Origin: an uncultured delta proteobacterium
GTDB taxonomy: Bacteria; Desulfobacterota; Desulfobulbia; Desulfobulbales; Desulfocapsaceae
Direction of reading: 5' to 3'
NCBI GenBank assembly: GCA_963718195.1
Contig: CAVQYQ010000004.1
Location: 94,048-158,047, forward strand
DNA: 64,000 nucleotides
Part shown: piece by piece, positions 37,853-55,981 of the stretch
Numbering within the stretch: position 1 is the first letter of the stretch
Layout: each line of letters begins with the position of its first letter
Program-made: the position numbers and the translations under genes
The notes under the pieces: model-generated
Told to the model about the DNA's origin: nothing
Databases searched by the model: none
The model's input: the letters and a program-made list of their open reading frames with translations, nothing else

Positions 37853-39187
37853 CTATTGATTTTTCTTAAAGGCTGTCTTGGGGAAAAAACAATATGGGCA
37901 CTCATCTGGTGGCATTTCATCATAGTGGACGTAACCACAGATCCTGCACCTCCAGACACTGCCAATTATCGATGCCTGCTGCCCATCGCCTGGATCGTGC
38001 TCCCGATGGAGCGGCAGGTCCTCCAGCAGGGGAAGGCTCGGCTGATACTCTTTGAGCAGATAATCCGCCAGGATGATTCGTTGAATTTCGCTGGTGCCCT
38101 CATAGATCCTCAGGAGGCGAACATCGCGCAGCAATTTTTCAATGGGAAACATCTTGGTGTAACCGTATCCACCAAAAATCTGTAAGGCCTCGTTGACCAC
38201 CTCCAGAGCTGTCTCTGTCGCATAGAGTTTGCTGATCGAAGCACTGACTCTTCCGTCCTGCTGTTGGTCCGAATCCCAAGCTGCTTTCCAGGTCAGCAAG
38301 CGGGCTGTTTCCACCTTCTGATACATCTCCGCCAGCTTAAACTGAATTGCCTGAAAAGCACTGATTGCCATACCGAAAGCACGCCTTTTTTTCGCGTAAT
38401 CAAGTGCATATTCCGTCGCCGCTCTGGCTGCTCCGACGCCAAAGCTGCCAATGATTGGCCGGGTGCGGGCAAAGGTCTTCATTGCAAGCACAAATCCTTC
38501 GCCAGGCAAAGCCAAAACATTTTCCTTTGGCACCCGTACATCTTTGAAATTAACCCCTACCGTGTTGGAACAGCGCTGACCCATTTTGGGAATAGCACGT
38601 CCGATTGTCACCCCGGGCCATTTTGTCTCTACCAGGAACGCGCAGATTCCCTGATGCTGGCTTTCAGGGTCTATGGACGCAAAGACCGACAGGTAATCAG
38701 CGACACCGCCGTTGGTAATCCAATATTTTGTGCCGTTAAGAAGATAGTCATCACCTGCAGCCTCAGCCCTGCAGCGAATGCCAGCCACATCAGAACCCAT
38801 TAATGGTTCAGATGTGGCAAAAGCGGCTAATTTGAAATCCCTGGCGATTTGAGGGAGGTATTTCTGTTTGGCATAGCTGTTGGTGGAGAGCAAGATCGGC
38901 TCCATTCCCAGCGAACTGTCGAAGATCGATGTCGCCAGCCCCGGACAAGCTGCGGCTATTTCTTCGGTAATCAAAGACGACTCTAACAAGCTCAGCCCTT
39001 GACCGCCAAATTCTTTTGGAATATCGCTGCCTATCATCCCGGCATCAAAAGCCTTGCGTATCACTTTCAGGGGAAGTTCATCTTTTTCATCGTAGTACCA
39101 GGCAACAGGTAAAACTTCTTTCAGAGCAAAAATGCGCGCCTTTTGCTGCAGGTCCAGTTGATCTTGGGTCAAACGGAAATTGAGCAT
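37853..39187 (-). CDS. Acyl-CoA dehydrogenase fused to a C-terminal rubredoxin-type domain
   Basis: Full ACAD core (TSEPLMGSD, YWITNG, YEGTSEIQR), then a linker of about 35 aa and WRCRICGYVHYDEMPPDECPYC (CxxC...CxxC). Confidence 0.85.
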   Translation of the reverse strand: MLNFRLTQDQLDLQQKARIFALKEVLPVAWYYDEKDELPLKVIRKAFDAGMIGSDIPKEFGGQGLSLLESSLITEEIAAACPGLATSIFDSSLGMEPILLSTNSYAKQKYLPQIARDFKLAAFATSEPLMGSDVAGIRCRAEAAGDDYLLNGTKYWITNGGVADYLSVFASIDPESQHQGICAFLVETKWPGVTIGRAIPKMGQRCSNTVGVNFKDVRVPKENVLALPGEGFVLAMKTFARTRPIIGSFGVGAARAATEYALDYAKKRRAFGMAISAFQAIQFKLAEMYQKVETARLLTWKAAWDSDQQQDGRVSASISKLYATETALEVVNEALQIFGGYGYTKMFPIEKLLRDVRLLRIYEGTSEIQRIILADYLLKEYQPSLPLLEDLPLHREHDPGDGQQASIIGSVWRCRICGYVHYDEMPPDECPYCFFPKTAFKKNQ

Positions 39188-39232: not shown

Positions 39233-39848
39233 TCAACTTTTCTCTCTGATTATCTCAAGGTTTATTAGGTCGTGCCGAAGTTTCTCAGCCGTGGTAAAGA
39301 GCAGTGCCCGCATGCCAAGATCCTTGGCTGCCAGAACGTGTTCCATCGTGTCATCAATAAAAACAGCTTCTGACGCTGTAACACCCAATCGCTCAAGGGC
39401 TCTAAAAAAGATTGCAGGCTCAGGTTTTGCCACCCCTTCGTCCCCGGAACAGATAACCTGTTTAAACAGCCAGCGAATGTCCCATTCTTTTAACCACTGG
39501 TCCAGGCCTGAGGGGTGATTTGAAACGACAGCGAGCTGATAGTGGTCTTTTAGCAACGTGAGGAGTTCAAAGACACCTGGGTTGATCTTTTCATCACGGT
39601 AGTAGCGTTTCTGGAATAATATGCAACGCTGAAGGATCATCCAGATTTAACTGTGGACCGATTGCCTGCCAGTAAGCCGCCATGTCGATCTCACCGACAA
39701 GTGCCTTTTCCCAGAAAGGCGACTCGAACATAATGGTGTTGATGGTTCCTGGTAACAGATTCAGTGCAGACTCATATGTTTCAAAAAGACTTTTCGGTTT
39801 CTGTGCAGAGATAACACGACCAAAATCGAATAAAAGCGCCTTAATCAT
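39233..39848 (-). pseudogene. HAD-superfamily phosphatase split by a frameshift between 39594 and 39640
   Basis: The N-terminal ORF has motif I, LLFDFGRV (DxG variant). The C-terminal ORF, in another frame, continues with FQKRYYRDEKINPGVFELL, motif II VVSN and motif III/IV K...FIDD. The two ORFs overlap by 47 nt. Confidence 0.75.
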
Positions 39849-39905
39849 CGTGGAGTGGTCTTTTCTTCTCTTGCCGAACTATTTAACAGCTCCAGTTCAG
39901 GATTC

Positions 39906-41003
39906 TCAGCAGAACTCGTTGACAAATTTTGATATCATATGAAACGCCTCGTCGTCAGTGAACTGCTCCGGAGGATGTTTACAGAAAAACGCCGAAGGTC
40001 CGAGCAGTGCTCCTGCTTTCCCACGGTCAAGGGCCAGCCGGGCACAACGGATCATATCAATAACCACACCGGCCGAATTTGGTGAATCTTCGACCGAAAG
40101 CCTCATTTCAATATCAATAGGGACATCACCAAAAATCTTCCCTTCCATGCGGATAAAACCAACCTTGTTGTCCCTTTGCCATTGTACATAATCACTGGGA
40201 CCTATGTGGATACGATCATCGACAAGCCTGCGCGCAGCTACCGATTGAACGGCCTCTGTCTTTGACTTCTTCTTGGATGCGAGCCTGGTCCTGTCGAGCA
40301 TATTGAGAAAATCCGTATTGCCGCCGGTATTGAGCTGATAGGTCCGTTCCAACTCGACGCCACGTCGCCGAAAGAGATCTGTGAGGGCGCGGTGAACAAT
40401 GGTGGCGCCCATCTGGGACTTCACATCATCACCAATCACGGGGAGCCCCCGGGTGGTAAACCGGCCGGCCCAGCCAGGATCACTGGCAATAAATATCGGG
40501 ATACAGTTGACCACCGCCACACCTGCCTCTAGGGCACAATTCATATAAAATTCAGTAGCCTGCTGGGACCCGACCGGCAGAAAATTCACCATAACCTGGG
40601 CCCCGCTGTTTCTCAGCTCCCCAACGACTGCTGCCATAGAGGCGTCCGGCTCTTCACTTGGAACAAATCGATACTTGGGATCAAGGTCCGCCATATGCGG
40701 TGATACACCATCAAGCAGGGCTCCCATATGAACGGTAACGCCAGTTTCAGGCACTTCAGGATAAAAGAGTTTGGTGCAGTTTGGGGGCTGCAATATCGCC
40801 TTCCCCACATCCAGACCAACCTTTCGTTGGTCTATATCAAACGCTGCCGCAATGGTGATATCGGTCGGATTGTAACCACCCAGGTCCCAGTGCATCAGGC
40901 CATTGACCTGTTTGGTTTGATGCTTTTTATAGAAGTATAAACCTTGTATCAAGGCACTGGCACAGTTACCGACACCGACAATAGCAATTTTGATTGTCTC
41001 CAT
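39906..41003 (-). CDS. ino1: myo-Inositol-1-phosphate (inositol-3-phosphate) synthase
   Basis: 365 aa with N-terminus IKIAIVGVGNCASALIQGLYFYK and overall collinearity with bacterial and archaeal MIPS. Confidence 0.9.
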   Translation of the reverse strand: METIKIAIVGVGNCASALIQGLYFYKKHQTKQVNGLMHWDLGGYNPTDITIAAAFDIDQRKVGLDVGKAILQPPNCTKLFYPEVPETGVTVHMGALLDGVSPHMADLDPKYRFVPSEEPDASMAAVVGELRNSGAQVMVNFLPVGSQQATEFYMNCALEAGVAVVNCIPIFIASDPGWAGRFTTRGLPVIGDDVKSQMGATIVHRALTDLFRRRGVELERTYQLNTGGNTDFLNMLDRTRLASKKKSKTEAVQSVAARRLVDDRIHIGPSDYVQWQRDNKVGFIRMEGKIFGDVPIDIEMRLSVEDSPNSAGVVIDMIRCARLALDRGKAGALLGPSAFFCKHPPEQFTDDEAFHMISKFVNEFC

Positions 41004-41062
41004 TAAAGCTCCTTATCTCCTTTTATGCAGGAAATTTTACTCGATGAAAGGCCTCCGCAAGT

Positions 41063-41743
41063 TCAAATGCTGTACCCTTTGCCATCTTCTGGCATCTCTT
41101 TTGTAACCATATCTTCAAGATCGCCGACATTGAGCTCTTTAACCTGGCTTGCGTGACATTTTAATGCTGCGAGTTTCTGGGAAAATGTCTCCGAGATATC
41201 GACATGATAGTTGATATCTTCAGCACCAAAAAAAAGCACTTCTTTTACCTTATGAGGCTCCAGACCTTCGGCAAGCATCTGCGGGTAGGCCATGTGATCT
41301 CGGGCATATGGGAAAAGGGCATCCATCACGACCTGACCGACAATCCGGTGATCGCGGTGCCAAAGATAACGCCGATATGGATCGGAACTGAGCACCATTT
41401 GTGGTCTAAAACGCCTTATCAGGCGAACGATTTCTTCCCGAAAAGCAGGCGTCTCCTCCAACTGCTGATCCGGCTTTCCCAGAAAAACAACATCTGCAAC
41501 GCCAAGCAGACGTGCCGCTTTCCTCTGTTCCTGCTGACGTATCCGGGCAAGCTCCAGAGCGGTCACCGCTCGATCACTGGTCCCCTTGTCACCGTTTGTA
41601 CACAATACATAGACGACTGATTTGCCTTCAGTGATCCACCTGGCAATGCTGCCGGCTGCCCCAAATTCGGCATCATCGGGATGAGCAATGATGACCATAA
41701 TGTCACATGTAATAGACATAAAACACCCCAGAATATTACTCAA
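41063..41743 (-). CDS. PIG-L/LmbE-family N-acetylglucosaminyl deacetylase (MshB/BshB-like)
   Basis: AHPDDAEFG metal motif and the HRDHR motif. It overlaps the upstream GT4 gene by 4 nt. Confidence 0.85.
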   Translation of the reverse strand: MSNILGCFMSITCDIMVIIAHPDDAEFGAAGSIARWITEGKSVVYVLCTNGDKGTSDRAVTALELARIRQQEQRKAARLLGVADVVFLGKPDQQLEETPAFREEIVRLIRRFRPQMVLSSDPYRRYLWHRDHRIVGQVVMDALFPYARDHMAYPQMLAEGLEPHKVKEVLFFGAEDINYHVDISETFSQKLAALKCHASQVKELNVGDLEDMVTKEMPEDGKGYSI

Positions 41744-42951
41744 GTATGAAATAACAAAGTATCATAGACTTTCAGCAGCGACGTCACTGCCTTTGCCCAG
41801 GTAAAGCCGCTGACGCTTTGTCTGATCTTTTCAGCGTCCTGTTGTTTTGCCAGCACCAGTCCACTCGATATCGCCTCCGCCAAACTATGATCATCGCCTG
41901 CTGCTGCCAGAAAACCGTTCGTCCCCTGCAAAATGACGTGAGGGGCAATACCCACCGGTGTGGAGGCGACTGGTGTGCCGGATGCCAAAGCCTCCAGGAT
42001 GACCAGGCCAAAGCTTTCGTAACGTGACGAAATCACCACCACATCCGCTTTTTGATAATACCGTACCATCTGTGAATGCTCAACCGGGCCAATCAGCTGC
42101 ACCTGCTCGCCGATTCCCAGTTCATTCACATAGTGTTCGATCTTTTGATAAGGATCACTCGACGGCCCGTCTCCACCAATGATAACCAGCTCAATCTCAT
42201 TACTGTCTGCAAGATGATAGACACTTCTTATCGCCAGATCCACACCCTTCATGGGATCAAATCTGCCGACAAACAGTACGAGTGGCCTTGCCTCTAAACC
42301 ACCGTTTTTGCAATTTACTGGGGCTGGGTCAGCTGTTTTAAAACGATCCATATTCACGCCCCAGGGAATATGGTAGATAGCAGCTCCCTCATCGGTAATC
42401 ATTGAAGCAAGATACTGACCCTCCTCCTCGGTAGGTACGATCACCCCGTCGCAGCACTGCAGCAGACGAGTTTCCTCGTCAATACGGTTTTGTTCCTCGA
42501 CATGGCCTGGGAAGGCAGCCATTTTAACCGCAGCGAGGGTGTGAAACGTAACTGCATGAGGGCAGTGCCAGAGCCTCTTTAATTGTTCACCCACCACGCC
42601 TGACAGCCAGTAATTGCTATGGATCAGATCATAAGAACCACCTTCTTGCCTGATAAAATTATCAATTACCGTGCAAAACCTGTCTAAATGCTCAAAAAGT
42701 GCGGACCGCGAGAGGCCTTCTGTCCCTTCAACAGCAAGATTTATGACCCTGACATGCGGCGCGTACGCAACAACCTGCTGCCAACCGTGGGTTGTTTGAC
42801 GCGTAAAAATGTCCACATGATGGCCCCTTCTGCCAAGTTCTGATGCCAGTTCCAGTAAATAGATACTCATTCCCCCGGTGTCGGCAGACCCCAGCCGACC
42901 AAGCGGACTGGAGTGCACAGAAAGCATGGCAATTCGAAGGTTTCTTCGCAT
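41740..42951 (-). CDS. GT4 glycosyltransferase, MshA-like (candidate inositol-phosphate GlcNAc transferase)
   Basis: IAMLSVHSSPLGRLGSADTGGMSIYLLE and DLIHSNYWLSGVVG...HTLAAVK are closely collinear with the corresponding MshA segments ([37 protein letters not shown]...HTLAAVK). The C-terminal E-x7-E region reads ESFGLVILEALASGTPV. Confidence 0.75.
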   Translation of the reverse strand: MRRNLRIAMLSVHSSPLGRLGSADTGGMSIYLLELASELGRRGHHVDIFTRQTTHGWQQVVAYAPHVRVINLAVEGTEGLSRSALFEHLDRFCTVIDNFIRQEGGSYDLIHSNYWLSGVVGEQLKRLWHCPHAVTFHTLAAVKMAAFPGHVEEQNRIDEETRLLQCCDGVIVPTEEEGQYLASMITDEGAAIYHIPWGVNMDRFKTADPAPVNCKNGGLEARPLVLFVGRFDPMKGVDLAIRSVYHLADSNEIELVIIGGDGPSSDPYQKIEHYVNELGIGEQVQLIGPVEHSQMVRYYQKADVVVISSRYESFGLVILEALASGTPVASTPVGIAPHVILQGTNGFLAAAGDDHSLAEAISSGLVLAKQQDAEKIRQSVSGFTWAKAVTSLLKVYDTLLFHT

Positions 42952-42985
42952 GATCAGCAGTCTTCCCGGGATGACCTGTCTCGTG

Positions 42986-43987
42986 TTATTCTCGTTGAAT
43001 AATACATTTCATCAGAGGAACTTCCATTCCACCAAGATGGAATTTGTACCTCTCCGTACCACCTAAAAAATCATATACCGCCTTCCCTGCCTCAATACTG
43101 GCGCGGATTGTTTCAATTTTGCTGACCACCCCAAGGGATATGGTGCGAAACCGGGGATCAAATCCGTTATTGTAAAGATAGGTGGTTTTGCCAATTTCAA
43201 CACAAAATACTGCGGCCACCTGCGAATCATTAACAGTAAGCGTATGAAGAGACAACATATCGAACTGCGAAAGTTCGGCTGCAAGGGTGCGAAAAAAGCC
43301 CTCTCTCGCATCGGTCATGAATTTTTTTTTATCCTCGCGACTCTGGCGAAACAGGTGAACAAATGAGTCCATGGCCGCTTCTGTCTCAGACCCTGTCCTG
43401 GCATTAGACTGAACACGCACTCCGGCCTCATTTGCCCGTCGAAGCTTTCGCCTCACTTCATGGCGTTGTTTACCAACCAGACTCTGGATATACTCCTCCC
43501 AGCTGGCTGGCAGGTCAGTTTGTACCGATGCAGTCTCTTGAGTAACAGAAACTCGCCACCCCTTTTCCCGGGCGGCTGGCACAAGATCATGATAGACGAG
43601 GGAATCTGGGCGTACCCGTTCCAAGGTCAGACAATGCACACCCTCTGCTTCCAGAAAACCAAGGATCTCCCGGGAAAAAAAATCCCGGCCCCCGGGCGCT
43701 GCGATAAAATCGCCAGTGTCACAGAGGTCAATAGAACCAATGAACCTGGCAATACCTCGTCTCACCATCAATGGCGCCACGCCCAGCGGTCGTGTACCTT
43801 CCGATACCAACAATATGAGCGACTCGTTGTCAGCTCCAAAATGGCGCCACCAGGATTTCAGCCAGGGCGGGGTGGTAAACGGGTTGTGCCACTGCCAGTT
43901 TTCACCATACTTGCTCCAGAGAGAAAAGAGCTCCGGTAATGTCGTTCTTTTTATCATCACCCCTGTTGCCGAACCCGTTCTCTTCAT
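42986..43987 (-). CDS. CelD/FemAB-like GNAT-fold acyltransferase
   Basis: 333 aa with N-terminus NPFTTPPWLKSWWRHF and C-terminus YLYNNGFDPRFRTISLGVVSKIETIRASIEAGKAVYDFLGGTERYKFHLGG, typical of the CelD/BioF2-like GNAT family. Confidence 0.6.
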   Translation of the reverse strand: MKRTGSATGVMIKRTTLPELFSLWSKYGENWQWHNPFTTPPWLKSWWRHFGADNESLILLVSEGTRPLGVAPLMVRRGIARFIGSIDLCDTGDFIAAPGGRDFFSREILGFLEAEGVHCLTLERVRPDSLVYHDLVPAAREKGWRVSVTQETASVQTDLPASWEEYIQSLVGKQRHEVRRKLRRANEAGVRVQSNARTGSETEAAMDSFVHLFRQSREDKKKFMTDAREGFFRTLAAELSQFDMLSLHTLTVNDSQVAAVFCVEIGKTTYLYNNGFDPRFRTISLGVVSKIETIRASIEAGKAVYDFLGGTERYKFHLGGMEVPLMKCIIQRE

Positions 43988-45031
43988 CGTACCGGGCTAT
44001 CCTCTTTGCTGCTGTCATTAATAGAAACACTGCAGCCGGTACGCGCAGCCTCTGCCAGCGCATCGAGAACCGCCATGTTGTTAATACTGTCATCGATCGG
44101 CACCATCGGCTCACCCCCACCAAGAACCAGATCACCAAAATGTTCAATCATCAACCGGTACTCATCGACACCAGGAATAACGATCTTCTCGGCAATTTCT
44201 TCAGCACCTGGCCGGTAGTATATTACAGCGTCTTTTTCCCACGGAACAAAGGCATCCTGAGGAAGATCGATAACGCCATCACTGCCAACAATACTATAGG
44301 TTTGTTGCAGCCCTGAACAGAAACTTGCCTCTATCGCAGCCAGCCTTCCATGAGCAAAGAGAAGATGAGCAACCAGGTGAATATCCACATCACTTTCAGG
44401 TCTGCGCACCGCCAGGGCTTGCACCCTGACAGGCTCTGCCTCCAGCAGCCAGCGGGCAACACTTGTTCCATAACAGCCAACGTCCAGAAGCGCCCCACCG
44501 CCGTGTGGAGAAACTGAGCCGGTGATTTGCACCGCTTTTCAGTACCGCTTCAGCCATGGAAAAACAAAATGCGGCGCGAACCAGCCGGGGCTTACCGATT
44601 GCTCCTGCAGAAATCATCGTTTTTATTCGTTGCGTGCGTGGATGGAACCGATACATCAGTGCCTCCATCAGGACACGGTCTGCCGATAAAGCCAGGGTTT
44701 TCATTTCCCTGGCCTCTGCAGCATTGCAGGCCAGTGGTTTTTCGCACAGCACATGTTTTCCAGCAAGGAGTGCCTTCTCTACCCACCTCAGGTGCAGATG
44801 ATTGGGCAGCGGAATATATACCGCATCCACACCAGGGTCCTGGACAACTTCATCATAACTCTGATAAATGGAGTCAATACCAACCTGCCGGGCAATGTCA
44901 TCGGCTTGATCAGGGCGCCGGGTACCAAGAGCACGAATTCTGCCGTTGTGTGAATGGGTAATTGCCGGCATCACGCATTTGCGGCCAATCATGGCATTGC
45001 CAAGAATGCCCCAGTTCAGTTTATCGCCCAT
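43984..45031 (-). pseudogene. Gfo/Idh/MocA-family oxidoreductase split by a frameshift near 44536..44539
   Basis: The N-terminal ORF has a Rossmann domain (WGILGNAMIGRK, GKHVLCEKPLA). The C-terminal ORF, in another frame, continues with GGGALLDVGCYG. Removing one base of the T4 run (A4 on the coding strand) at 44536..44539 gives a continuous reading, AVLKAVQITGSVSPHGGGALLD. The start at 45031 (MGDKLNWGILG) overlaps the upstream stop. Confidence 0.75.
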
Positions 45032-46697
45032 TGATCGTCTCAATCCTCCCGCCATATGCCATTGACCGGGCCGCCGCCTCAAGAATGGAGACGACTTTCA
45101 CTGAATCAGCAAGGGGAGCCGCGAGCGGCTCACCCCAGAAAAGATGATCCGCAAGGTTGTAGTGAAACGCCCATGGGTGTCTCTCTGGCAAAACAGGTTT
45201 TATCTGTTCGACATCGCCTGTCGAACGGCGCCGGTAAACGGTGATCTCCGGCATCATCTCTGTTGCGGGAATTTCTGTTTTGGTAAAGTAATGGAGCGGG
45301 TCTGCAGCAAAAGCTGTAATGTCTCGCCAGTCGCCACGGATTGCCCCTGAAGATCCAAGGATATACCATTTCGGCTTGTGGGCTGCGGCGATATCCGAGT
45401 GCATAAACTCGGCCTCCCGGCCATCTTCAAACCGTATCTGAATACGTTCCTGATCACCGTTGGTCACATCATGCCAGACGCGCTTATGTCTTGTGCCAAT
45501 TACCGCCTCAACCGGATACGGCATGAGCCCAACGAGCCAATCGATATAGTGGGCACCCCAGTCAAAAGATGTGCCTCCCGATACCGGCGCATGGGAATGC
45601 CAGTAGCCGCAGGGGTGATGAAATCCTCCAACAAAGGTCTCCAGATAAAACGGCTCACCGATCATTCCTTTGGCCAGCATATCTTTTATAGCGATGAAAT
45701 CGGCATCCCAACGACGGTTCTGATGGCAGCTCAAGTGTCGTGAACAACGCGCTGCCATTTCCTCCATTGCCCCGGTTTCTTCCCTGCTCAGGGCAAGCGG
45801 TTTTTCACACAACACATGCTTGCCGGCTGCCATCATCTGCATTGACAGGCGGGCATGACTGTTTGGAGCGGTTGCGACAATGACCAGGTCGACATGCTCG
45901 TCTTCAGCCATCGCCGCAGCATCAGCATAGGTCGTTATTCCAGGAAAGTCCAGTGTTGCCTGGTCAAGCTGTCCGGGATTGAGATCACAGGCGGCAACCA
46001 GGTGAAGCCCGGGGGTATTCTCTGCCGCACGCCCGTGAAATTTGCCCACCGAGGGTGCGTAACCGAGAATACCGATACCCAGCGAGACATCAGCAGCTGG
46101 CGCCTCGTTTTGAAAAGAGCGAAGCAGACGATAAAACGTCTGGCGAATCATCTGCGCACCAAAATCCTGCAGCGTTGTGGAGGCAAGGTAGCCTTTTCCA
46201 TAGGGGCGAGTAGTCAGAACACTGCTGTGGGCGTAATGCCAATCAGCATAGAGAACAGTCTCGGTATCCTCAGCTGTCACGTGCAATGGCTGGTAAAAAC
46301 CGTCAACATAAACGGCATCAGGCAGACGGACCCCGAGAAAGTTGTCTGAATCTGTAAACAGGACACGGAGCTCAGAGCGGGGACCGACCGGGCCCGGTTG
46401 TACACCAAACGCTTCAGGCAAGCGAATATCGTTCAGCCCGACCAGGGCAAGCCAAGCCCCGCCAGCTCTTACAAACTCAAGCATTCGATCGATTTCTCGT
46501 TTGCCAGTCAATTTCCCGGCGGTAAGTATGGCATCAATATCACTTAGGTCTGCAGGCAATTCGGATAGGTATGATGTCCGGACATGATCCATACCACCTC
46601 CAAATTCTGGCCATGGAAAATCGGTGCCGCACTCTACTTCTGTAATTATCAAAACAGAAAGCTCAGGATGATTGATCATTGTCTTCCTCTTTGCCAT
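45021..46697 (-). CDS. Fusion of a ThuA-like (class-I amidotransferase-fold) domain and a Gfo/Idh/MocA oxidoreductase
   Basis: The N-terminal 200 aa or so contain FVRAGGAWLALVG and YGKGYLASTTL (ThuA-like, tentative). The C-terminal 350 aa contain IGILGYAPSVGKFH and GKHVLCEKPLAL (Gfo/Idh/MocA). Confidence 0.65.
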   Translation of the reverse strand: MAKRKTMINHPELSVLIITEVECGTDFPWPEFGGGMDHVRTSYLSELPADLSDIDAILTAGKLTGKREIDRMLEFVRAGGAWLALVGLNDIRLPEAFGVQPGPVGPRSELRVLFTDSDNFLGVRLPDAVYVDGFYQPLHVTAEDTETVLYADWHYAHSSVLTTRPYGKGYLASTTLQDFGAQMIRQTFYRLLRSFQNEAPAADVSLGIGILGYAPSVGKFHGRAAENTPGLHLVAACDLNPGQLDQATLDFPGITTYADAAAMAEDEHVDLVIVATAPNSHARLSMQMMAAGKHVLCEKPLALSREETGAMEEMAARCSRHLSCHQNRRWDADFIAIKDMLAKGMIGEPFYLETFVGGFHHPCGYWHSHAPVSGGTSFDWGAHYIDWLVGLMPYPVEAVIGTRHKRVWHDVTNGDQERIQIRFEDGREAEFMHSDIAAAHKPKWYILGSSGAIRGDWRDITAFAADPLHYFTKTEIPATEMMPEITVYRRRSTGDVEQIKPVLPERHPWAFHYNLADHLFWGEPLAAPLADSVKVVSILEAAARSMAYGGRIETINGR

Positions 46698-47934
46698 CGG
46701 CGAGCTGCCAACGATAGCCGGAATCTGTATCTTCTACCATGATGCCGGCACGACTCAGGGCATCACGCAGGGCATCGCCTAATTCAAATTGTTGTGCGTC
46801 TCTCAGCTGCTGGCGGGTTGCAAGAAGGCTGTCGACAATTGGACCGATCGCCTTTGCCAGTGCAGATCTGGTCAGTGCAGTCCTGGTTCCGAGTTCCGCC
46901 AGCTGTTCCCGAAAGAGATCCCTGGCCTGGGAAATTAACTCCGGGTTCTCCCTGTTTCCCTCTGCCTGCCAGAGGATACGGTCCAATTCCAATAGTCCAT
47001 TAGCGGATTGTCTGAGATCATCAGTAGCAATGGCCTGCTGAAAATCCTCTTTAAGATCATGCACCGCGCACCAGAAATCCGATTCATCGTCTTGCTGAGC
47101 TGCAACCTTTAAACCGGAGGCTGACTCAACTGCAGCCGCAACGAGGCCCCCGCCCTCTCCCTGCAAGAGTTCGATGGGGTATGTTTTGTTGCAGACAAAA
47201 TAATGGGTATTACCACAGTGTTGCAACACCGCCCTGCCAATACCATAAATCTGAAAAGAGTTGCTGGAAAAATCAATGATACAGGCGGTATGTTCATCGA
47301 GGCCAAGCACCGGTACGGGTTCTTCCAGCATTGATACGAGTTCATCAAACCGGGAACTACCCATAAAGCAGCGGCTGGTATCATGGGTTCCGCCTTCGGC
47401 ATTATTCCAATGGGGGATTACGATGATTTGCAAACCGAATGGACCGAGAATATCGAGACCTGCAACCCAGTGCAGCGGCTGACCGACTTTATATATTTCA
47501 TATACCGGAAGTGTAAAACGGCCGGCAGTCAGTGCAGCGGCGCTTGCCGCCACGAGACAGCCACCTTTTCGAATATGGTTGATAAAAATCTCCGGAATCC
47601 GGGATTTGGAGAGTTGTTCGACTGCATAGGTGGGACTACCTGGTCCCATCAGAATATAGTCAGCGCCTCGTAATTTATGATAGGCCTCGGCAGCATCAAC
47701 CTCAGAAATCGTTTCAGACGATTTATACGAAGCGATGTCCAAACGGCATCCCACCCGCTTGCGAAAATATTCAATCGCAGTTGCGCCGATCTGCTCCGCA
47801 TTAAGCTGAAACCCGGCTGGAGTGTCGAGAAAAAGTGCAGATCTGTCGGCGGGGAATTGAGAGAGAAGCATTTTGTGGACCTCAACCATAGTGGCTGTAA
47901 GCTCACCTGATCCCATGAGTGCAAGTGTACCCAT
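46663..47934 (-). CDS. Peptidase-S51-like domain fused to a cysteinyl-tRNA-synthetase-type C-terminal (DALR/anticodon-binding-like) domain
   Basis: The N-terminus is LALMGSGE...ILMGPGSP...VAASAAAL (S51/cyanophycinase-like fold with a degenerate Ser motif). The C-terminus is FQQAIATDDLRQSANGLLELDRIL...LLATRQQLRDAQQFELGDALRDALSRAGIMVEDTDSGYRWQL. It follows the CysRS C-terminal pattern F..A..DDFNT..A...LFEL.R......R...R..K.F..AD.IRD.L...GI.LEDT..G..W. Confidence 0.55.
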   Translation of the reverse strand: MGTLALMGSGELTATMVEVHKMLLSQFPADRSALFLDTPAGFQLNAEQIGATAIEYFRKRVGCRLDIASYKSSETISEVDAAEAYHKLRGADYILMGPGSPTYAVEQLSKSRIPEIFINHIRKGGCLVAASAAALTAGRFTLPVYEIYKVGQPLHWVAGLDILGPFGLQIIVIPHWNNAEGGTHDTSRCFMGSSRFDELVSMLEEPVPVLGLDEHTACIIDFSSNSFQIYGIGRAVLQHCGNTHYFVCNKTYPIELLQGEGGGLVAAAVESASGLKVAAQQDDESDFWCAVHDLKEDFQQAIATDDLRQSANGLLELDRILWQAEGNRENPELISQARDLFREQLAELGTRTALTRSALAKAIGPIVDSLLATRQQLRDAQQFELGDALRDALSRAGIMVEDTDSGYRWQLADGKEEDNDQSS

Positions 47935-48022
47935 AACCTGTCGCGTCCTCTAGAGCTGCAGTTTCTGTAAATGTCGTAATGTGGTTTTAAGCAGGATGGT
48001 AAGTAAATCATTACCATTTTCT

Positions 48023-48751
48023 TTACAGTAGGTCAATTTGCGGGGAAGGCAACTTCTCATTTGAAATTACTGCACCTGCAGCATAGGAGTGGACATTTCC
48101 CTGATCATAGAGCACGACTCTTCCACCGCCATACACTGTCCATCCACCATAAACCGCATCGTTGATGATGCCGGTTTCCTCGTCAATGCCGAGTATACTG
48201 AACCCCGGCAGCAGGTGGAGTAATCTTTTGACCCAGGCAATACCAACACTATTGTGATGTGGGATGAGGCAAATCCCCGCCATGAGATTAAGTCCGGCCA
48301 CGACCGTTTGAGAAGAAGGGTCGTAAAATGTTTCGCACAGCACCATTGCTCCAGCACTGCTACCGCCAATCACCCCACCAGTCTGGTACACAGAGCAGAT
48401 ACTCTCCCAGCTATGTGTTCCCCTCAACGTCTCTGCCAGGTGAAAAGGAAAACCGCCGAGCAAAAAAACAAGGCGCGAACACCTCAACTGCATGCTTAAT
48501 TCTTGGTCATCTGCTGAATCCCGATCGATCACTGGCCTGCATACCACGTTGCGTGCACCAATCCCGCGGAACCATTGGACACCGTTTTGGCCGGCACGAT
48601 GATGGTTGTTATCAGGCGCCGCTGCCGCAGGGATAATATCGACTGCAACATGCTCGCCACCGGCAAGAACCAACGCCCTGCTGTCAGCATCAATCATACG
48701 ACCGCTAAACTCAGCCCCACCTTCCAATAGTAGATAGCCCATGCAATGCAC
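48023..48751 (-). CDS. Peptidase S51 family protein (cyanophycinase / dipeptidase E-like)
   Basis: LLLEGGAEF, LVFLLGG and the canonical nucleophile motif GGSSAGAMV. Confidence 0.7.
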   Translation of the reverse strand: MHCMGYLLLEGGAEFSGRMIDADSRALVLAGGEHVAVDIIPAAAAPDNNHHRAGQNGVQWFRGIGARNVVCRPVIDRDSADDQELSMQLRCSRLVFLLGGFPFHLAETLRGTHSWESICSVYQTGGVIGGSSAGAMVLCETFYDPSSQTVVAGLNLMAGICLIPHHNSVGIAWVKRLLHLLPGFSILGIDEETGIINDAVYGGWTVYGGGRVVLYDQGNVHSYAAGAVISNEKLPSPQIDLL

Positions 48752-49021
48752 CCCAGCATATTGTTGGAGCAGCCCCTGGAAGAATCCTCTTGATGTAAAC
48801 CAGGAGATAATTATACAAGTAGTAGCATATCTATCTTGAAATTTCAGGAAGAAACCATCCTCAATCTGTTATCTCAGCCCACCTGCTTCCCCCTGTCGGA
48901 ACTGGTACGCTCAACAATAGACCTTTTACCTAAAGTAGGTTATTCTGCTCTTTTAGTGCAATTCACAAAGTTGAAGCTCATACCAGAAAGATCATGAAAA
49001 CTATAAATACGGGAGCGCACT

Positions 49022-49749
49022 ATGACCAAACGAATCGTCATCTATGGTGGCTCAGGGGGGATCGGCTCGGCAACAGCGAGGCTTCTGCGGGCAGATGGGC
49101 ATGAACTCCATTTGGCCGGAAGGTCTGAGGATAAACTTGCAACACTCTCATCAGAACTCAAAGCCGGGTATACCGTGGGCGATGTGTGCGATGCAGGCCT
49201 CTTCACTCAGGTGGTCAATGATTTTCCCGGTCCATGGGATGGTCTTGTCTACAGTGTTGGCACCATTAATCTTGGCAGTATAAGGCGACTTTCCGACACC
49301 GATTTCCTCCACGATTTTCAGTAAATGCAATGGGAGCGGCCCTCGCTATACAGTCCGGCCTGCCAGCGCTAAAAAAGAGCAATGGTGTCCCCTCGATCGT
49401 TCTGTTTTCCAGTGTCGCATCACTCCAGGGCTTCACCTTCCATGGTTCCATGGGAATGGCAAAAGGGGCGGTCAATGGGTTGACGCTTGCGCTTGCTGCA
49501 GAGCTGGCACCAAACGTTCGGGTCAATGCTATTGCCCCATCGTTAACCAGGACCCCCCTTGCTCAATCAATATTGGCAAACGACAAGGTTGCCCAGGCTG
49601 TCACGGATCTTCATGCCTTAAAAAAACTGGGCACCAGTGACGATATAGCCAATCTTGTGGTGTACCTGCTCTCGGATCAGGCGGGCTGGGTCACCGGGCA
49701 AATCATCAGTGTTGACGGGGGTCGTTCAACTCTGAGACCACAGGGCTAA
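49022..49749 (+). pseudogene. Short-chain dehydrogenase/reductase split by a 1-nt frameshift at about 49315..49330
   Basis: ORF 1 has GGSGGIGSA and ends ...DFLHDFQ*. ORF 2, in another frame, continues MGAALAIQ...SSVAS...GSMGMAKGAVNGL...NAIAPS. Adding one T to the T4 run at 49315..49318 gives DFLHDFSVNAMGAALAIQ, the usual SDR ..vN..g.. segment. Confidence 0.8.
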
Positions 49750-49861
49750 ACGAAACAGAGACAATAATCAAATAGAACGCCTGAGCTGAAATACAGAGGA
49801 TTTCAGCTGAATCTTTGCGAATATCAGGTAGTTTATTTCTTTGCAAAACAGGAGGAGATGT

Positions 49862-51424
49862 ATGGATGTTGTAATGTTGTCCCGATTGCAGTTTGCCTTT
49901 ACAATCATGTTTCATTACATATTTCCACCCCTGACCATTGGTCTCGGGGTGATTATTGCCTATCTTGAGACCAGATACTATCTCACGAGAAAGCCGGTCT
50001 TCGCTATCGCCACCCAATTCTGGACCAAAATCTTTGTCTTAAACTTCGCCATAGGAGTCTCCAGCGGCATCGTCATGGAGTTCCAGTTCGGCACCAACTG
50101 GGCGACCTATTCCCGTTTTGTCGGTGATGTTTTCGGTAGCGCTCTTGCTGCAGAAGGTATATTTGCATTTTTCCTTGAATCCGGCTTCCTGGCAATTGTC
50201 GCATTCGGTAGAGAAAAGGTAAGTGCTGGTCTCTATCTTTTCAGCATGTATATGGTGGCCCTGGGCTCAATCTTTTCCTCCATATGGATTGTGGTCGCCA
50301 ACAGCTGGCAGCAGACACCGGCCGGACACCACATCGTCGATATACTCCGACCAGACTCCTCAGCAGGCGGCTCCGGCGAAATGATTCCCTGGGTCGTCGA
50401 TGGAGTCGTTCAGCGAAGGGCGGAAATCGTAGATTTCCTGGCCATGGTCTTCAACCCGTCAACGGTGCAGCGCCTGAGCCATGTCCTTCTGGGCTGTGCA
50501 GCCGTTGGCGGCTTTTTCGTACTGAGTATTTCCGCCTACTATATACTGAAAGACAAGCATCATGAGTTTGCCCGCCATTCTTTTAATGGGGCACTCCTTT
50601 TCAGCCTTGCAGCCTCACTTGGCCTTGCCATTAATGGTCACACCCAGGCCCAAGATGTTTATAGAAATCAACCGGCAAAACTCGCAGCCTTTGAAGGCCA
50701 TTATACAACCGGCCGCGCCGATTTAAATCTGGTCGGCTGGCCAAATGAACGCGAAGAGCGTATCGATTATGAGTTGAGTCTTCCCGGCGGTCTCAGCTTT
50801 ATGGTCTTTGATGATTTTACCTTCAGCAAACCCGTAGTCGGGCTTGACCGATTCAAACCAGAAGACCGGCCTCCCCTGCTGATTCCATTTTTTTCCTGGC
50901 GCCTGATGGTTGGCTTTGGCGGCCTAATGATTGTCCTCTGCACGGCTGGCCTCGTCTTCAATCTTAAAAAACAACTCGCCCAGAAACGTCCGCTCCTCTG
51001 GTCCTTTGTGTTTGCCATCGGCTTTGTCATGGTCGCAAACCAGAGCGGCTGGATAGCGGCCGAAGTTGGCCGACAGCCATGGACAGTCCATCCGCCGGTT
51101 ATCTGGAATGAGAGTGGCACCGATTTAGTCACCGCCGCCGATGGGTTGTATCAGTATGACGAAAGTCTTGGTTTACGAACAAGCAACTCATTCAGTGCGG
51201 CTGTCAGCGTTGAAGAGGCCAGGACGTCACTCATCCTTTTTGCTATTCTCTACGCTGCCCTGACAGCGGTTTGGATCATCGTGCTCGACAGAAAAATACG
51301 CATCGGTCCGGAACCTCTGCCGGCAGCTGCAGCTTCCGGGGGGACAGGTGTGGTGCAGGCGGCAACCGACAGGCAGCATGCCCGGTTGAGTGACAAAGAA
51401 AAAGACCAAGGAGGTGCATCGTGA
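49862..51424 (+). CDS. cydA: Cytochrome bd-type quinol oxidase subunit I
   Basis: [24 protein letters not shown]-terminus and [12 protein letters not shown]. The start is set at the ATG at 49862, preceded by AGGAGG; the track starts at a TTG at 49841. Confidence 0.9.
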
Positions 51425-52449
51425 GTTCTGAAATCCTCTGCATTGTCTGGTTTGTAATACTGAATATTCTGCTCATCGGCTATGCAATACTCGATGGCTT
51501 TGATCTCGGAGTCGGCATCCTGCATCCCTTTGTTGCAAAAACCGACCGGGAAAGACGACTGGTCATGAACAGTATCGGGCCGCTCTGGGATGGCAACGAA
51601 GTGTGGCTTGTGACGTTTGGCGGGGCATTGTTCGCCATGTTCCCGAATGGTTACGCCTCGATTTTCAGTGCATTTTATCTCCCCTTTGTCCTGCTTCTTT
51701 TCGCCCTCATTTTTCGGGCAGTATCTCTGGAATTCCGTTCAAAACGAACGAACACCTTCTGGCGCAACTTCTGGGACCTGCTCTTTTTCATCGGATCCAC
51801 CATGGCGACATTCCTGTTTGGCGTAGCGGTTGGTGCAACTATGCAGGGATTGGAACTCTCCGAGCTGGGAGACTATCAGGGGACCATGCTTGATCTTCTT
51901 TCTGGTTTCAGTGTGAGTGTGGGGTTGTTTAGCGTGGCACTTTTTGCCATGCACGGGGCCATTTATCTGTATTTAAAAACTGAAGGGGAATTGCAGCAAC
52001 GTCTTTTCACCTGGATGAAAGGAACCTATTATCTCTATCTCGCGCTCTTTATTATCGTTACCCTGTGGTCGGTTTTTCTGGTGCCTGCATCATTGCAGCA
52101 TTTTGGTGACTATCCACTCCTTTGGCTGGTGCCTCTAATCAATGTTCTGGCAATCGCCAATATTCCCAGGGCAATAGCCAGAAAAAAACCTCTTTATGCC
52201 TTTTTTAACAGTTGCTTTACTATTGCAGCGCTGGTTTTCCTGTTCAGTGCCGCTATTTTTCCTGATCTTTTACCTGCATCAAACAATTCAGCATTTTCCA
52301 TTACAATATTCAACGCTGCATCCAGCATGCTGACCCAGAAGATCGGACTCGTTATCGTAGCACTTGGAATGCCGATGGTTCTATCCTATACCATTCTGAT
52401 ATACTGGACATTCCGGGGGAAAGTTGAATTGGGTGAGGGCAGCTATTAA
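51421..52449 (+). CDS. cydB: Cytochrome bd-type quinol oxidase subunit II
   Basis: 342-aa polytopic protein with a GTG start overlapping the cydA stop by 4 nt, and a typical CydB N-terminus (LDGFDLGVGIL...GPLWDGNEVWL). Confidence 0.9.
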   Translation: MSSEILCIVWFVILNILLIGYAILDGFDLGVGILHPFVAKTDRERRLVMNSIGPLWDGNEVWLVTFGGALFAMFPNGYASIFSAFYLPFVLLLFALIFRAVSLEFRSKRTNTFWRNFWDLLFFIGSTMATFLFGVAVGATMQGLELSELGDYQGTMLDLLSGFSVSVGLFSVALFAMHGAIYLYLKTEGELQQRLFTWMKGTYYLYLALFIIVTLWSVFLVPASLQHFGDYPLLWLVPLINVLAIANIPRAIARKKPLYAFFNSCFTIAALVFLFSAAIFPDLLPASNNSAFSITIFNAASSMLTQKIGLVIVALGMPMVLSYTILIYWTFRGKVELGEGSY

Positions 52450-52597
52450 AACAACACTATGATTATACCTTTTTGATAAGAGCTCGGTCACAACCCAACC
52501 GACGACAAAGGTAACAAGATGCAACGATACCAGGCTACCGGTTTCAAGGAATTTACCGGCAAAGAACAGGGCAGCAGCAGAGTGGACTCACCTCTTG

Positions 52598-53197: not shown

Positions 53198-53510
53198 CTG
53201 AGTATCACTTTCTTTTAGAAATCAGGGGTTAAATAGCCTTCAAGCATCCTCTGGTTTTCAATCTCAGAAACAATAAGTATGAACAATTGCAATTTCTTGT
53301 TTAATTTCAGGCAACACCGGTTCCCATCGGCCCAGAATTGATCGACAGCCTGAAATTTAGTATGATAACGGTATCTTTGAAACTTATTCATTGACAAGCA
53401 AGCGCAATTCCCATACCAGAATACGTAAGAGATGCTTGGTTAAATCACAGAGAAAGAAGTGGCATTTTTATGGTAAAATTGTTAAACAAAACTCCCACAT
53501 TTCCCATAGT

Positions 53511-53587
53511 GGTCCCGTAGCTCAGTAGGATAGAGCACGAGATTCCTAATCTCGGTGTCGCAGGTTCGAATCCTGCCGGGATCACCA
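53511..53587 (+). tRNA. tRNA-Arg (anticodon CCT)
   Basis: Manual cloverleaf. Acceptor GGTCCCG/CGGGATC (one G-U pair). D arm GCTC-AGTAGGATA-GAGC. Anticodon arm CGAGA-TTCCTAA-TCTCG. Variable loop GTGTC. T arm GCAGG-TTCGAAT-CCTGC. Encoded CCA. Confidence 0.9.
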
Positions 53588-53696
53588 CTTTTCTTCAACG
53601 GTCGAATAGACGCAATACTGACGCCGCATTCAAGCTCTATATAAGGGTGTGCAGAATCGGTATTTTGGAAGGACATGATCCAGAGAGTGCAACACC

Positions 53697-55942: not shown

Positions 55943-55981
55943 CAATTAGGTGTGTGATTCATAGACATCATTTCAATTATT

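Follow-up and report, generated by a model that had tools for sequence, protein, structure and literature searches.

Nine closely spaced genes on the minus strand of the window (the whole 64-kb stretch of DNA analysed here, from an anaerobic sulfate-reducer relative) point to an undescribed, widespread route to a mycothiol-like compound, in which a FemX-like enzyme and an anticodon-reading protein would replace the cysteine ligase. The favored reading, to which we assign a rough probability of 0.5, is that GlcN-inositol is cysteinylated in a Cys-tRNA(Cys)-dependent reaction, in place of that of MshC, to give a mycothiol-like thiol; no chemistry has been tested. No description of a mycothiol-like system built on an S51/CysRS-tail protein and a FemX-like enzyme was found in the searchable literature.

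The operon extends from 48751 to 39233. Re-inspection of the sequence bore out the nine minus-strand genes of the initial annotation together with their coordinates and overlaps, which measure 4 nt at 41740/41743 and at 43984/43987, 11 nt at 45021/45031 (the ATG at 45031 being the same start as in the intact orthologue of a related locus, L001) and 35 nt at 46663/46697; the remaining intergenic gaps are 34-88 nt. Upstream, a divergent intergenic region of 270 bp (48752..49021), the presumed promoter, separates the operon from SDR/cydAB genes and includes no Rfam element; one weak sigma-70-like match is found on the minus strand at 49028-49000. Downstream, a co-directional gene for an acyl-CoA dehydrogenase with a rubredoxin-like C-terminal tail (37853..39187, minus strand) starts 45 nt beyond the HAD gene. 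Whether this gene belongs to the operon is uncertain: L001 lacks it at the corresponding position, and orthologues (67% identity) adjoin the fusion gene in three other loci (L020, L026 and L045).

The glycosyltransferase of the proposed GlcN-inositol core (GT4 family, 403 aa, 41740..42951, minus strand) matches the MshA model TIGR03449 best, at 284 bits compared with 107 bits for the next model, and scores 222 bits against Corynebacterium glutamicum MshA (3c48); for ten orthologues taken from diverse loci the MshA score is 253-367 bits, and no second-best model exceeds 138 bits. In addition, the equivalents of MshA Y110, H133 and T134 and of an Arg at 154/155, all residues of the acceptor/inositol-phosphate site, are invariant in 53 cluster GT4s. 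On these sequence comparisons the window enzyme and its ten orthologues group, by a wide score margin, with MshA and not with the lipid- or polysaccharide-directed GT4s; a placement with the latter is what the initial annotation had said would refute its proposal. The N-deacetylase (PIG-L family, MshB/BshB-like, 226 aa, 41063..41743, minus strand; PF02585, 115 bits) is matched by the NCBIfam models for BshB1 (110 bits, the best), Mca (68 bits) and MshB (51 bits), all under the equivalog cut-offs. Also encoded are a myo-inositol-1-phosphate (inositol-3-phosphate) synthase, INO1 (365 aa, 39906..41003, minus strand; TIGR03450, 408 bits; PF01658, 117 bits), and a HAD-IA phosphatase identified by HMM (39233..39848, minus strand; a split gene with an intact 204-aa orthologue in L001), which is a candidate for the dephosphorylation of GlcNAc-Ins-P. 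Because the equivalog cut-offs of the MshA, MshB, MshD and INO1 models were all missed, substrate specificities are extrapolated. The reported absence of an MshC catalytic domain holds within the 64-kb window, which contains no class-I aaRS-like ORF with a KMSKS motif.

A 423-aa protein (46663..47934, minus strand) joins an S51 serine-hydrolase-fold domain (residues 1-260), via a flexible linker, to a CysRS-type helical and anticodon-binding domain (residues 284-411; PF23493 CysS_C, 27.5 bits). The latter Pfam domain, named 'CysS/YqeB C-terminal domain' by NCBI, also occurs in non-aaRS proteins. The PF03575 score of the fusion, 19.6 bits, lies below the cut-off of 23.9 bits, and its S51 identity was confirmed by fold, with a TM-score of 0.81 to 6nqc in a structure search that also returned the CysRS:tRNACys complex 1u0b. 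Across 42 sequences neither the Ser-His-Glu triad (S131/H175/E214) nor an extra HWNNAEGGTHDTSRC loop varies, and the invariant residues of the tail are R374, R378, D387, R390, D402 and W409. Fusion residues R378, F/W/Y383, D387 and R390 align with R427, W432, D436 and R439 of E. coli CysRS, which contact the anticodon (PMC13449415); judged from this alignment, the tail retains the anticodon-reading residues of CysRS. An Asp-dipeptide is an unlikely substrate for the S51 domain of the fusion. A standalone S51 protein of the cyanophycinase/PepE-like type (242 aa, 48023..48751, minus strand; PF03575, 41.6 bits; TIGR02069, 51 bits) carries a GSSAGA nucleophile motif as well as PH.. and DEE motifs.

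Pfam families (Acetyltransf_6, 95 bits; FemAB_like, 28.3 bits) and predicted fold agree that the 333-aa protein encoded at 42986..43987 (minus strand), initially called a CelD/FemAB-like GNAT, is a FemX/FemAB-like tandem GNAT. Some Acetyltransf_6 proteins are acyl-CoA users. The best Foldseek PDB matches of the AF2 model (pLDDT 93.8) are all aminoacyl-tRNA-dependent enzymes (Sbb17/Sba18, FemX, MprF/A-PGS and FemA; TM 0.55-0.70), the Sbb17/Sba18 structures being bound to the amino-sugar compound streptothrisamine, whereas acetyl-CoA-dependent tandem GNATs reach only TM 0.36-0.51. The other family names of the initial annotation were likewise upheld by HMM, with the exception of a weak 'ThuA-like' label. 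The 558-aa protein to which it was applied (45021..46697, minus strand) does contain a C-terminal Gfo/Idh/MocA NAD(P) oxidoreductase, but its N-terminal ~205 aa are only possibly ThuA-like: residues 1-205 of the window protein have no Pfam match, a family profile matches PDB 4jqs at E = 0.003, and the PF06283 match of an orthologue is flagged 'weak'. A second Gfo/Idh/MocA oxidoreductase, also assigned by HMM, is encoded by a split gene (43984..45031, minus strand) with an intact 348-aa orthologue in L001.

Genomes of at least 336 species carry the fusion gene. Within 47 well-flanked loci its neighbors include the GNAT in 40, the MshA-like GT4 in 37, the PIG-L protein in 34 and all three together in 29, with the 558-aa oxidoreductase in 22/47 and the standalone S51 protein in 13/47. 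This association, seen again in dozens of species, goes far beyond what chance would produce and defines a conserved core of fusion, GNAT, GT4 and PIG-L genes anchored by the fusion; what recurs of the nine-gene set first described is this core, while the oxidoreductases, standalone S51, INO1 and HAD genes are lineage-variable additions (INO1 or a second MIPS type is present in at least 12 related loci). The cluster is broadly conserved and housekeeping-like, not a sporadic secondary-metabolite island. Related loci also contain an MshD-like double GNAT (100 bits over a full-length match), a glyoxalase-II-like MBL hydrolase (20 loci) and, tightly inside one operon (L025), a TrxR-like enzyme with a fused mycoredoxin-like domain; MshD-like, glyoxalase-II-like and reductase genes are all lacking from the window itself. 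A DinB/MST-family gene lies upstream in one locus (L083). No tRNA-Cys gene is near any of the clusters, and only two related loci, both of Syntrophobacteraceae, have cysS next to the cluster, possibly by chance. Chloroflexota contigs hold GNAT, GT4, MshD-like, PIG-L and GloB-like genes together, without MshC and, within the available flanks, without the fusion gene; the fusion is therefore not obligatory for the GNAT.

What the analysis shows is the identity of the domains, their folds, the conservation of residues and that of gene order; the substrates of the first four steps of the proposed pathway are inferred. INO1 would supply inositol-3-phosphate, the MshA-like GT4 would combine it with UDP-GlcNAc to GlcNAc-Ins-P, the HAD phosphatase would remove the phosphate and the PIG-L enzyme would deacetylate GlcNAc-Ins to GlcN-Ins. 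The next three steps, and the identity of the product, are hypothesized. Substituting for MshC, the FemX-like tandem GNAT would transfer cysteine from Cys-tRNA(Cys) to the free GlcN amine (step 5); the fusion would bind tRNA(Cys) at its GCA anticodon, thereby providing tRNA identity, with the S51 domain of the fusion placed at the acceptor end, in the position of the CysRS catalytic domain, handing over or processing the aminoacyl ester (step 6); and, in the window lineage, the two Gfo/Idh/MocA oxidoreductases may tailor the sugar or inositol by oxidation or epimerization (step 7). In other lineages, an MshD-like enzyme would N-acetylate the cysteine, and the glyoxalase-II-like hydrolase and the mycoredoxin-TrxR fusion would use or recycle the thiol (step 8). 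The undescribed GlcN-inositol pathway without an MshC catalytic domain that was initially suggested is supported, and the first of the products then considered, a mycothiol-like thiol made by another ligation chemistry, is favored by the MshA-like GT4, the lack of a phosphatidyltransferase motif, the GNAT fold, the CysRS-tail residues and the thiol-related neighbors. It should be noted that other parts of the carrier genomes could hold a gene for MshC, BshC or GshA.

The product may instead be a GlcN-inositol derivative that is not a thiol, for example an inositol glycoside that has been oxidised or epimerised, a compatible solute or a secondary metabolite resembling an aminoglycoside; the GNAT would then attach some other acyl group or amino acid, and the role of the CysRS-like tail would not be tRNA(Cys)-specific. 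This reading is unlikely. In its favor, the window operon combines two sugar/inositol oxidoreductases with no thiol-handling genes, the closest structural analogues of the GNAT serve antibiotic pathways and every equivalog cut-off was missed. It fits poorly, however, with the invariance of the CysRS-specific anticodon-contact residues, with the recurrence of MshD-like, glyoxalase-II-like, mycoredoxin-TrxR and DinB/MST neighbors in related loci and with housekeeping-like conservation across 336 or more species.

Slightly less probable again is the same pathway and product with the roles exchanged, the fusion acting as cysteinyl transferase through a Ser131 acyl-enzyme formed from Cys-tRNA(Cys) and the GNAT performing a second acylation (an aminoacyl or N-acyl cap). 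The invariant triad and loop speak for this, as do the location of the S51 domain, N-terminal to the same helical and anticodon-binding module as the CysRS catalytic domain, and the lack of an MshD-like capping enzyme in the window operon. Against it, a transferase role on aminoacyl-tRNA is not known for any S51 enzyme, and the Chloroflexota clusters, which have GNAT, GT4, PIG-L and MshD-like genes and no fusion in their flanks, make the GNAT a constant partner of the GlcN-forming enzymes alongside a separate capping enzyme. Which of the two, the GNAT or the S51 Ser-His-Glu domain, catalyses amide-bond formation is unresolved.

A cell-envelope glycoconjugate (either a GlcN-phosphatidylinositol lipid resembling GPI or a cell-wall modification of the Fem type, in place of a soluble metabolite) is very improbable. 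In GPI synthesis GlcNAc-PI is indeed deacetylated by PIG-L enzymes, peptidoglycan precursors are substrates of Fem enzymes, and GT4s are frequent in envelope synthesis, many weaker HMM matches being of this kind; but a CDP-alcohol phosphatidyltransferase motif, whose co-occurrence the initial annotation had proposed to check, is in no ORF of 80 related loci, the core proteins match no membrane-protein or lipid-enzyme family in Pfam or NCBIfam, the GT4 falls with MshA by a large score margin, and INO1 and a soluble HAD phosphatase accompany the cluster.

Both frameshifts noted initially are present in this sequence, as one extra T near 44512 in the Gfo/Idh/MocA gene (TTT versus TT in L001) and one extra base relative to L001 near 39620 in the HAD gene, but they are probably assembly errors. 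An assembly indel is the likeliest cause because a third split gene, the neighboring SDR (49022-49749), is unbroken in a 98.4%-identical Illumina contig, from which it differs in homopolymer length. That the operon is decaying and no longer functional, as an insertion in two of its nine genes might suggest, is scarcely credible given a single lesion per gene, halves 80-83% (Gfo/Idh/MocA) and 74-85% (HAD) identical to the intact orthologues, the SDR precedent and seven other unbroken genes.

The standalone S51 protein and the fusion have in common with the S51 peptidases (PepE, cyanophycinase) the fold, at TM up to 0.81, and the positions of the Ser-His-Glu triad; the fusion differs from that family in its sub-threshold Pfam score, its family-specific invariant loop and its tRNA-binding tail. 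The fusion resembles CysRS in having a helical bundle and then a small alpha/beta domain, C-terminal to the catalytic domain and with equivalents of the anticodon contacts, but an S51 domain replaces the Rossmann-fold aminoacylation domain and the HIGH/KMSKS motifs are absent. Among the FemXAB-type transferases, Orf11/Sbb17/Sba18 in particular use aminoacyl-tRNA to aminoacylate streptothrisamine, an amino-sugar intermediate; they share the tandem-GNAT fold, as best structural match (TM 0.59-0.70), and the transfer proposed here, from aminoacyl-tRNA to the amine of an amino-sugar-containing acceptor. In contrast, the GNAT shows no similarity at the sequence level to the Fem-type enzymes in the PDB, its proposed donor is Cys-tRNA instead of Gly-tRNA, its context is widely conserved and resembles primary metabolism, and it is paired with a separate anticodon-binding-domain protein, an arrangement not known among Fem-type enzymes. 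Bacillithiol biosynthesis (BshA, BshB, BshC) follows the same logic of GT4, PIG-L and cysteine addition, and BshB1 is the best NCBIfam model for the PIG-L protein; however, the GT4 scores only 93 bits to BshA as opposed to 284 bits to MshA, an inositol-phosphate synthase is present and no BshC was seen. Actinobacterial mycothiol biosynthesis (Ino1, MshA, MshA2, MshB, MshC, MshD) shares with the window cluster the MshA-like GT4 with its inositol-phosphate site residues, the PIG-L deacetylase, INO1 and a phosphatase candidate, and with related loci the MshD-like double GNATs and the mycoredoxin-like domain. The cluster differs in that its genes are grouped and not scattered, no equivalog cut-off is reached, it occurs in anaerobic hosts (Desulfobacterota, Nitrospirota and Chloroflexota), and the window lineage has additional oxidoreductases. 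MshC, a CysRS catalytic paralogue, is the ATP-dependent ligase of the mycothiol pathway; in its stead the cluster carries a FemX-like GNAT and a fusion of an S51 domain with a CysRS anticodon-binding domain.

The nine co-directional minus-strand genes between window positions 48751 and 39233 show the four overlaps listed in the initial annotation (4 nt at 41740/41743 and at 43984/43987, 11 nt at 45021/45031 and 35 nt at 46663/46697), and the other intergenic gaps in the operon measure 34-88 nt. The ATG at 45031 is the same start as that of the intact orthologue in L001, a locus from an uncultured deltaproteobacterial MAG with 70-88% protein identity over the operon genes (82% for the fusion protein). 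Pfam and NCBIfam supported nearly all of the families first assigned from the sequence alone, which comprise a standalone S51 protein (48023-48751; PF03575, 41.6 bits), a 423-residue fusion of an S51-like domain and a CysRS C-terminal domain (46663-47934), a 558-residue protein with a Gfo/Idh/MocA oxidoreductase domain, a second, split Gfo/Idh/MocA gene, an Acetyltransf_6/FemAB-like GNAT protein (42986-43987), a GT4 glycosyltransferase (41740-42951), a PIG-L deacetylase (41063-41743), an inositol-3-phosphate synthase (39906-41003) and a split HAD-IA phosphatase (39233-39848). The weak point is the 'ThuA-like' label: the Gfo/Idh/MocA domains are clear by Pfam in the comparison with ThuA/ThuB-type disaccharide 3-dehydrogenase, but the N-terminal domain of the 558-residue window protein has no Pfam match, and the remaining support consists of a match of a 25-orthologue profile of this domain to PDB 4jqs (E = 0.003) and a PF06283 match, flagged as weak, on one orthologue. 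No riboswitch or T-box was found upstream of or inside the operon, and scans for promoters and terminators performed at or near chance level and were uninformative.

Both frameshifts noted at the outset are present, each broken gene carrying one extra base relative to its intact L001 orthologue (TTT in place of TT near 44512 in the Gfo/Idh/MocA gene; one additional base near 39620 in the HAD gene), and the halves of the split genes are still 74-85% identical to the L001 proteins. A third split gene, a short-chain dehydrogenase (SDR) just upstream of the operon (49022-49749, plus strand), is read as two ORFs as a result of a 1-nt deletion near 49319 (TT to T) and is intact in L087, an Illumina contig sharing 98.4% identity with the window over 4.7 kb; this third lesion suggests that the window derives from an indel-prone assembly. 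Since three single-base frameshifts fall within 11 kb and at least two of them lie at short T runs, they are more plausibly indels of the assembly than signs of decay, although proof would need re-sequencing. Pseudogene decay was rejected as the main explanation because the lesions are single-base differences from L001 and the SDR gene is whole in L087. The L087 contig has an indel of its own, with 4 nt of the fusion gene missing at L087:3301-3330 (window 47393-47334), which cuts the gene call to 233 residues; the intact copy is that of the window.

In the mycothiol pathway, MshA is the GT4 enzyme that moves GlcNAc onto 1L-inositol-1-phosphate, MshB is the GlcNAc-Ins deacetylase of the PIG-L family, MshC is an ATP-dependent Cys:GlcN-Ins ligase and a paralogue of the CysRS catalytic domain, and MshD is a double-GNAT acetyltransferase. 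The GT4 protein of the operon aligns end to end with Corynebacterium glutamicum MshA (222 bits) and has MshA (TIGR03449) as its top model with 284 bits, under the equivalog cut-off of 462.5, the runner-up scoring 107; ten orthologues from diverse loci were likewise all top-scoring to MshA (253-367 bits; second-best at most 138). Furthermore, 53 cluster GT4 proteins all retain the equivalents of MshA Tyr 110, His 133 and Thr 134 together with an Arg at position 154/155, and 44 of them have Lys or Arg at the equivalent of Lys 78; in MshA these residues act in inositol-phosphate binding. Judged at the level of sequence, the cluster GT4 is a sister group of actinobacterial MshA and not a proven orthologue, since all scores remain under the equivalog cut-off. 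For the deacetylase, membership of the PIG-L family is supported (115 bits) and equivalog status is not (51 bits versus a cut-off of 224 for the MshB model and 110 versus 182.5 for BshB1). The inositol-3-phosphate synthase that the mycothiol pathway calls for is putatively supplied by the cluster (PF01658, 117 bits, above its cut-off; TIGR03450, 408 bits, under the equivalog cut-off of 638).

The absence of an MshC catalytic domain, inferred in the initial annotation, withstood a search of the 64-kb window for class-I synthetase-like (KMSKS/HIGH) ORFs, none of which was found there or in the related loci (the rest of the genomes was not covered), except for genuine, full-length cysS genes (TIGR00435, 568-574 bits) at L073:5710-7251 (minus) and L080:5773-7263 (minus). 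As this adjacency, in which cysS precedes the fusion gene by about 3 kb, is confined to two related Syntrophobacteraceae loci, it is treated as possibly coincidental, and no tRNA-Cys gene was found near the clusters in 60 loci or in the window. The main refutation foreseen for a GlcN-inositol pathway, that the cluster would accompany phosphatidylinositol synthesis and so make a GPI-like GlcN-PI lipid, is removed and that reading rejected, because no ORF of at least 90 residues bearing the CDP-alcohol phosphatidyltransferase (PI synthase) motif D..DG..AR...G...D...D was found in 80 loci or in the window region.

The fusion protein was modeled by AlphaFold (pLDDT 76) as an S51 domain, a disordered linker and a helical bundle with a beta-hairpin, the last of which matches the CysRS:tRNACys complex (1u0b_B of 1u0b) in a Foldseek search and the CysRS C-terminal domain by profile (PF23493, 27.5 bits versus a cut-off of 23; TIGR00435 positions 338-464). 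In an alignment of the fusion to Escherichia coli CysRS, considered together with the conservation in 42 sequences, the fusion residues Arg 374, Arg 378, Asp 387, Arg 390, Asp 402 and Trp 409, equivalent to CysRS Arg 423, Arg 427, Asp 436, Arg 439, Asp 451 and Trp 458, respectively, are invariant, and position 383, equivalent to Trp 432, is always Phe, Trp or Tyr. Residues Arg 427, Trp 432, Asp 436 and Arg 439 of CysRS have been mutated to re-target anticodon recognition, and Arg 427 contacts G34 (PMC13449415). By predicted fold and by the GCA-contact residues, the C-terminal part qualifies as a putative CysRS anticodon-binding domain.

The S51 domain of the fusion superposes on 6nqc with a TM-score of 0.81, and its fold also matches PepE and cyanophycinase. 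A Ser-His-Glu triad is present, in that Ser 131 aligns with the nucleophilic Ser of 6nqc and Ser 131, His 175 and Glu 214 are invariant in the 42 sequences; the His and Glu assignments are inferred by analogy with the motifs PH.. and DE.T. Also invariant in these sequences is a family-specific loop, HWNNAEGGTHDTSRC (residues 175-189), which could serve as a lid induced by substrate or tRNA, or else as a second catalytic element; residues 178-190 were predicted by AlphaFold with a pLDDT below 50.

The GNAT protein scores 95 bits against PF13480 and 28.3 bits against PF04339 (FemAB_like; cut-off 27). Comparison with the PDB by single sequence and by family profile gave no match, so that only the fold search was informative: with an AF2 model (pLDDT 93.8), 16 of the 20 best Foldseek matches were aminoacyl-tRNA-dependent transferases, the best PDB fold matches being Sbb17 and Sba18 (crystallised with streptothrisamine), Weissella FemX, MprF/A-PGS/L-PGS and FemA (TM-scores 0.55-0.70). 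The modeled protein thus meets the description of a tandem-GNAT Fem fold, from which the use of an aminoacyl-tRNA donor is an inference.

In a scan of one genome per species, relatives of the fusion were found in at least 336 genomes, the best 80 loci being from Desulfobacterota (Desulfobulbales, Desulfobacterales, Syntrophobacterales), Nitrospirota/Thermodesulfovibrionia and single Aminicenantes and Verrucomicrobiota bins. The recurrent gene order, obtained by tBLASTN and ORF clustering, is fusion, an optional pair of a possibly ThuA-like Gfo/Idh/MocA gene and a second Gfo/Idh/MocA gene, GNAT, GT4 and PIG-L. Of the 47 loci that have sufficient flanking sequence, 40 contain the GNAT, 37 the GT4 and 34 PIG-L, all three occurring together in 29, and the less frequent members are the Gfo/Idh/MocA pair (22/47), HAD (17/47), the standalone S51 gene (13/47) and inositol-phosphate synthase (7/47). 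The nine genes are arranged exactly as in the window in the Desulfobulbales form of the cluster (L001, L003, L005, L007, L009 and L010; also L081/L082). A sub-variant, fusion-GNAT-PIG-L, has no GT4 within 10 kb (L020, L026, L044 and L045), which implies either a glycosyltransferase gene at another site or a different acceptor. Orphan fusion genes without GNAT, GT4 or PIG-L also exist (e.g. L039, L052 and L063), among unrelated neighbours (thioesterase, fucosidase, AccA, M20 peptidase).

The additional recurrent neighbours in related loci point to a thiol product. An MBL-fold protein in 20 loci has hydroxyacylglutathione hydrolase (glyoxalase II) as its best match (102 bits), and a two-GNAT protein encoded in six related Desulfobacterota loci and three Chloroflexota loci has mycothiol synthase, MshD, as its best, full-length match (TIGR03448, 100 bits versus a cut-off of 163). 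In four loci a mycoredoxin-like glutaredoxin domain (76 bits) is joined to a thioredoxin-reductase-like flavoprotein, one of these fusion genes stopping 10 nt before the S51 gene (L025), and a second inositol-phosphate synthase, of eukaryote/archaeal type, occurs in four loci. The window itself contains no MshD-like, glyoxalase-II-like or reductase gene. In 5-13 loci the cluster is flanked by a gene trio, an ABC ATPase with a Walker A motif and two hydrophobic proteins (L017:13618-16146, L018:13939-16739 and L025:16165-18127, all minus strand), which looks like an ECF/Cbi-type transporter as judged from the sequences alone.

Other features of the window are recorded here as observations. The HAD gene is followed by an acyl-CoA dehydrogenase gene whose product has a rubredoxin-like domain at its C terminus (37853-39187, minus strand), a 67%-identical orthologue of which lies just upstream of the fusion in three of the GT4-less loci (L020:7046-8374, L026:7973-9301, L045:8398-9729). 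Divergent from the operon are cydA and cydB (cytochrome bd oxidase; 49841-52449, plus strand), which places an oxygen-detoxifying function beside a putative redox-thiol cluster, be it significant or mere coincidence. The region 52000-56000, in which the GC content falls to 0.40-0.43, resembles a small island that has integrated at a tRNA gene, with tRNA-Arg(CCT) (53511-53587), a 132-residue ORF with a partial OEP-domain match only, possibly a gene fragment (53697-54095), and a Fic/DOC (DUF4172) gene (54794-55942). Outside the operon, two tandem genes, each for an NTP_transferase + GlmU-like hexapeptide protein (421 and 417 residues; 56629-59144, minus strand), resemble a sugar-1-phosphate nucleotidylyltransferase pair of the GlgC/GlgD type.

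From family membership and synteny, inositol-phosphate synthase would form Ins-3-P, the GT4 would convert this to GlcNAc-Ins-P, the HAD phosphatase would strip the phosphate to leave GlcNAc-Ins, and the PIG-L protein would deacetylate it to GlcN-Ins. The subsequent steps are hypothetical: cysteine would be transferred from Cys-tRNA(Cys) by the FemX-like GNAT to give Cys-GlcN-Ins, with the identity of tRNA(Cys) supplied by the fusion protein, whose S51 domain would work on the acceptor end, where it may hand the aminoacyl group over, relay it as an acyl-enzyme or exert control by hydrolysis; MshD-like enzymes may cap the cysteine in some lineages, and the two Gfo/Idh/MocA enzymes may tailor the sugar or inositol in that of the window. 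The roles of the two proteins could be swapped, with the fusion rather than the GNAT forming the amide, and this is not excluded. The GNAT is the more likely amide-forming enzyme, because Chloroflexota MAG contigs carry a compact cluster of GNAT, GT4, MshD-like, PIG-L and glyoxalase-II-like MBL genes (L083:10001-14617, L084:5043-9686, L085:5716-10406) from which the fusion is absent within the available flanks. Upstream of the cluster in L083 is a DinB/MST-family gene, homologues of which were not found in 80 Desulfobacterota/Nitrospirota loci.

The cluster is provisionally read as a route to a glycoside thiol that relies on another ligation system, a prediction that is specific and directly testable. 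The full reading is tentative, with a probability of roughly one in four: that many anaerobic Desulfobacterota, Nitrospirota and Chloroflexota use a hitherto overlooked mycothiol-type thiol as their redox buffer and attach its cysteine through a new two-protein, tRNA(Cys)-dependent ligase composed of an S51 domain on a CysRS anticodon module (a new aminoacyl-tRNA-handling class acting by acyl-enzyme relay) and a FemX-like transferase. Little is established about the main low-molecular-weight thiols in sulfate reducers, syntrophs and Thermodesulfovibrionia, and the conserved gene set makes a definite structural prediction, Cys-GlcN-inositol (N-acetylated and tailored or not), that can be sought by mass spectrometry. 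A full-text literature search found no paper on a tRNA-dependent or non-actinobacterial mycothiol-type pathway, no NCBIfam equivalog covers these cluster proteins, and their current PGAP/JGI annotations are unspecific ('hypothetical', 'peptidase E', 'CelD/BcsL family acetyltransferase', 'CysS/YqeB C-terminal domain-containing protein').

If correct, the reading would extend mycothiol-type chemistry well beyond Actinobacteria, would be, to our knowledge, the first use of an aminoacyl-tRNA in building a redox cofactor, and would provide a function for the S51/CysRS-tail fusion, a family found in hundreds of species and now called 'hypothetical' or 'peptidase E'. It would also show that a Fem-type transferase can acquire its tRNA specificity from a recruited tRNA-synthetase anticodon module. 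Compared with the bacillithiol route, in which the BshA-type GT4 uses a malate acceptor, the cluster differs in that its GT4 scores 93 bits against BshA (TIGR03999, cut-off 273.7), far under its MshA score. The likeness of the fusion protein is to CysRS itself, the domain order of which it mirrors, from catalytic domain to helical bundle to anticodon binder.
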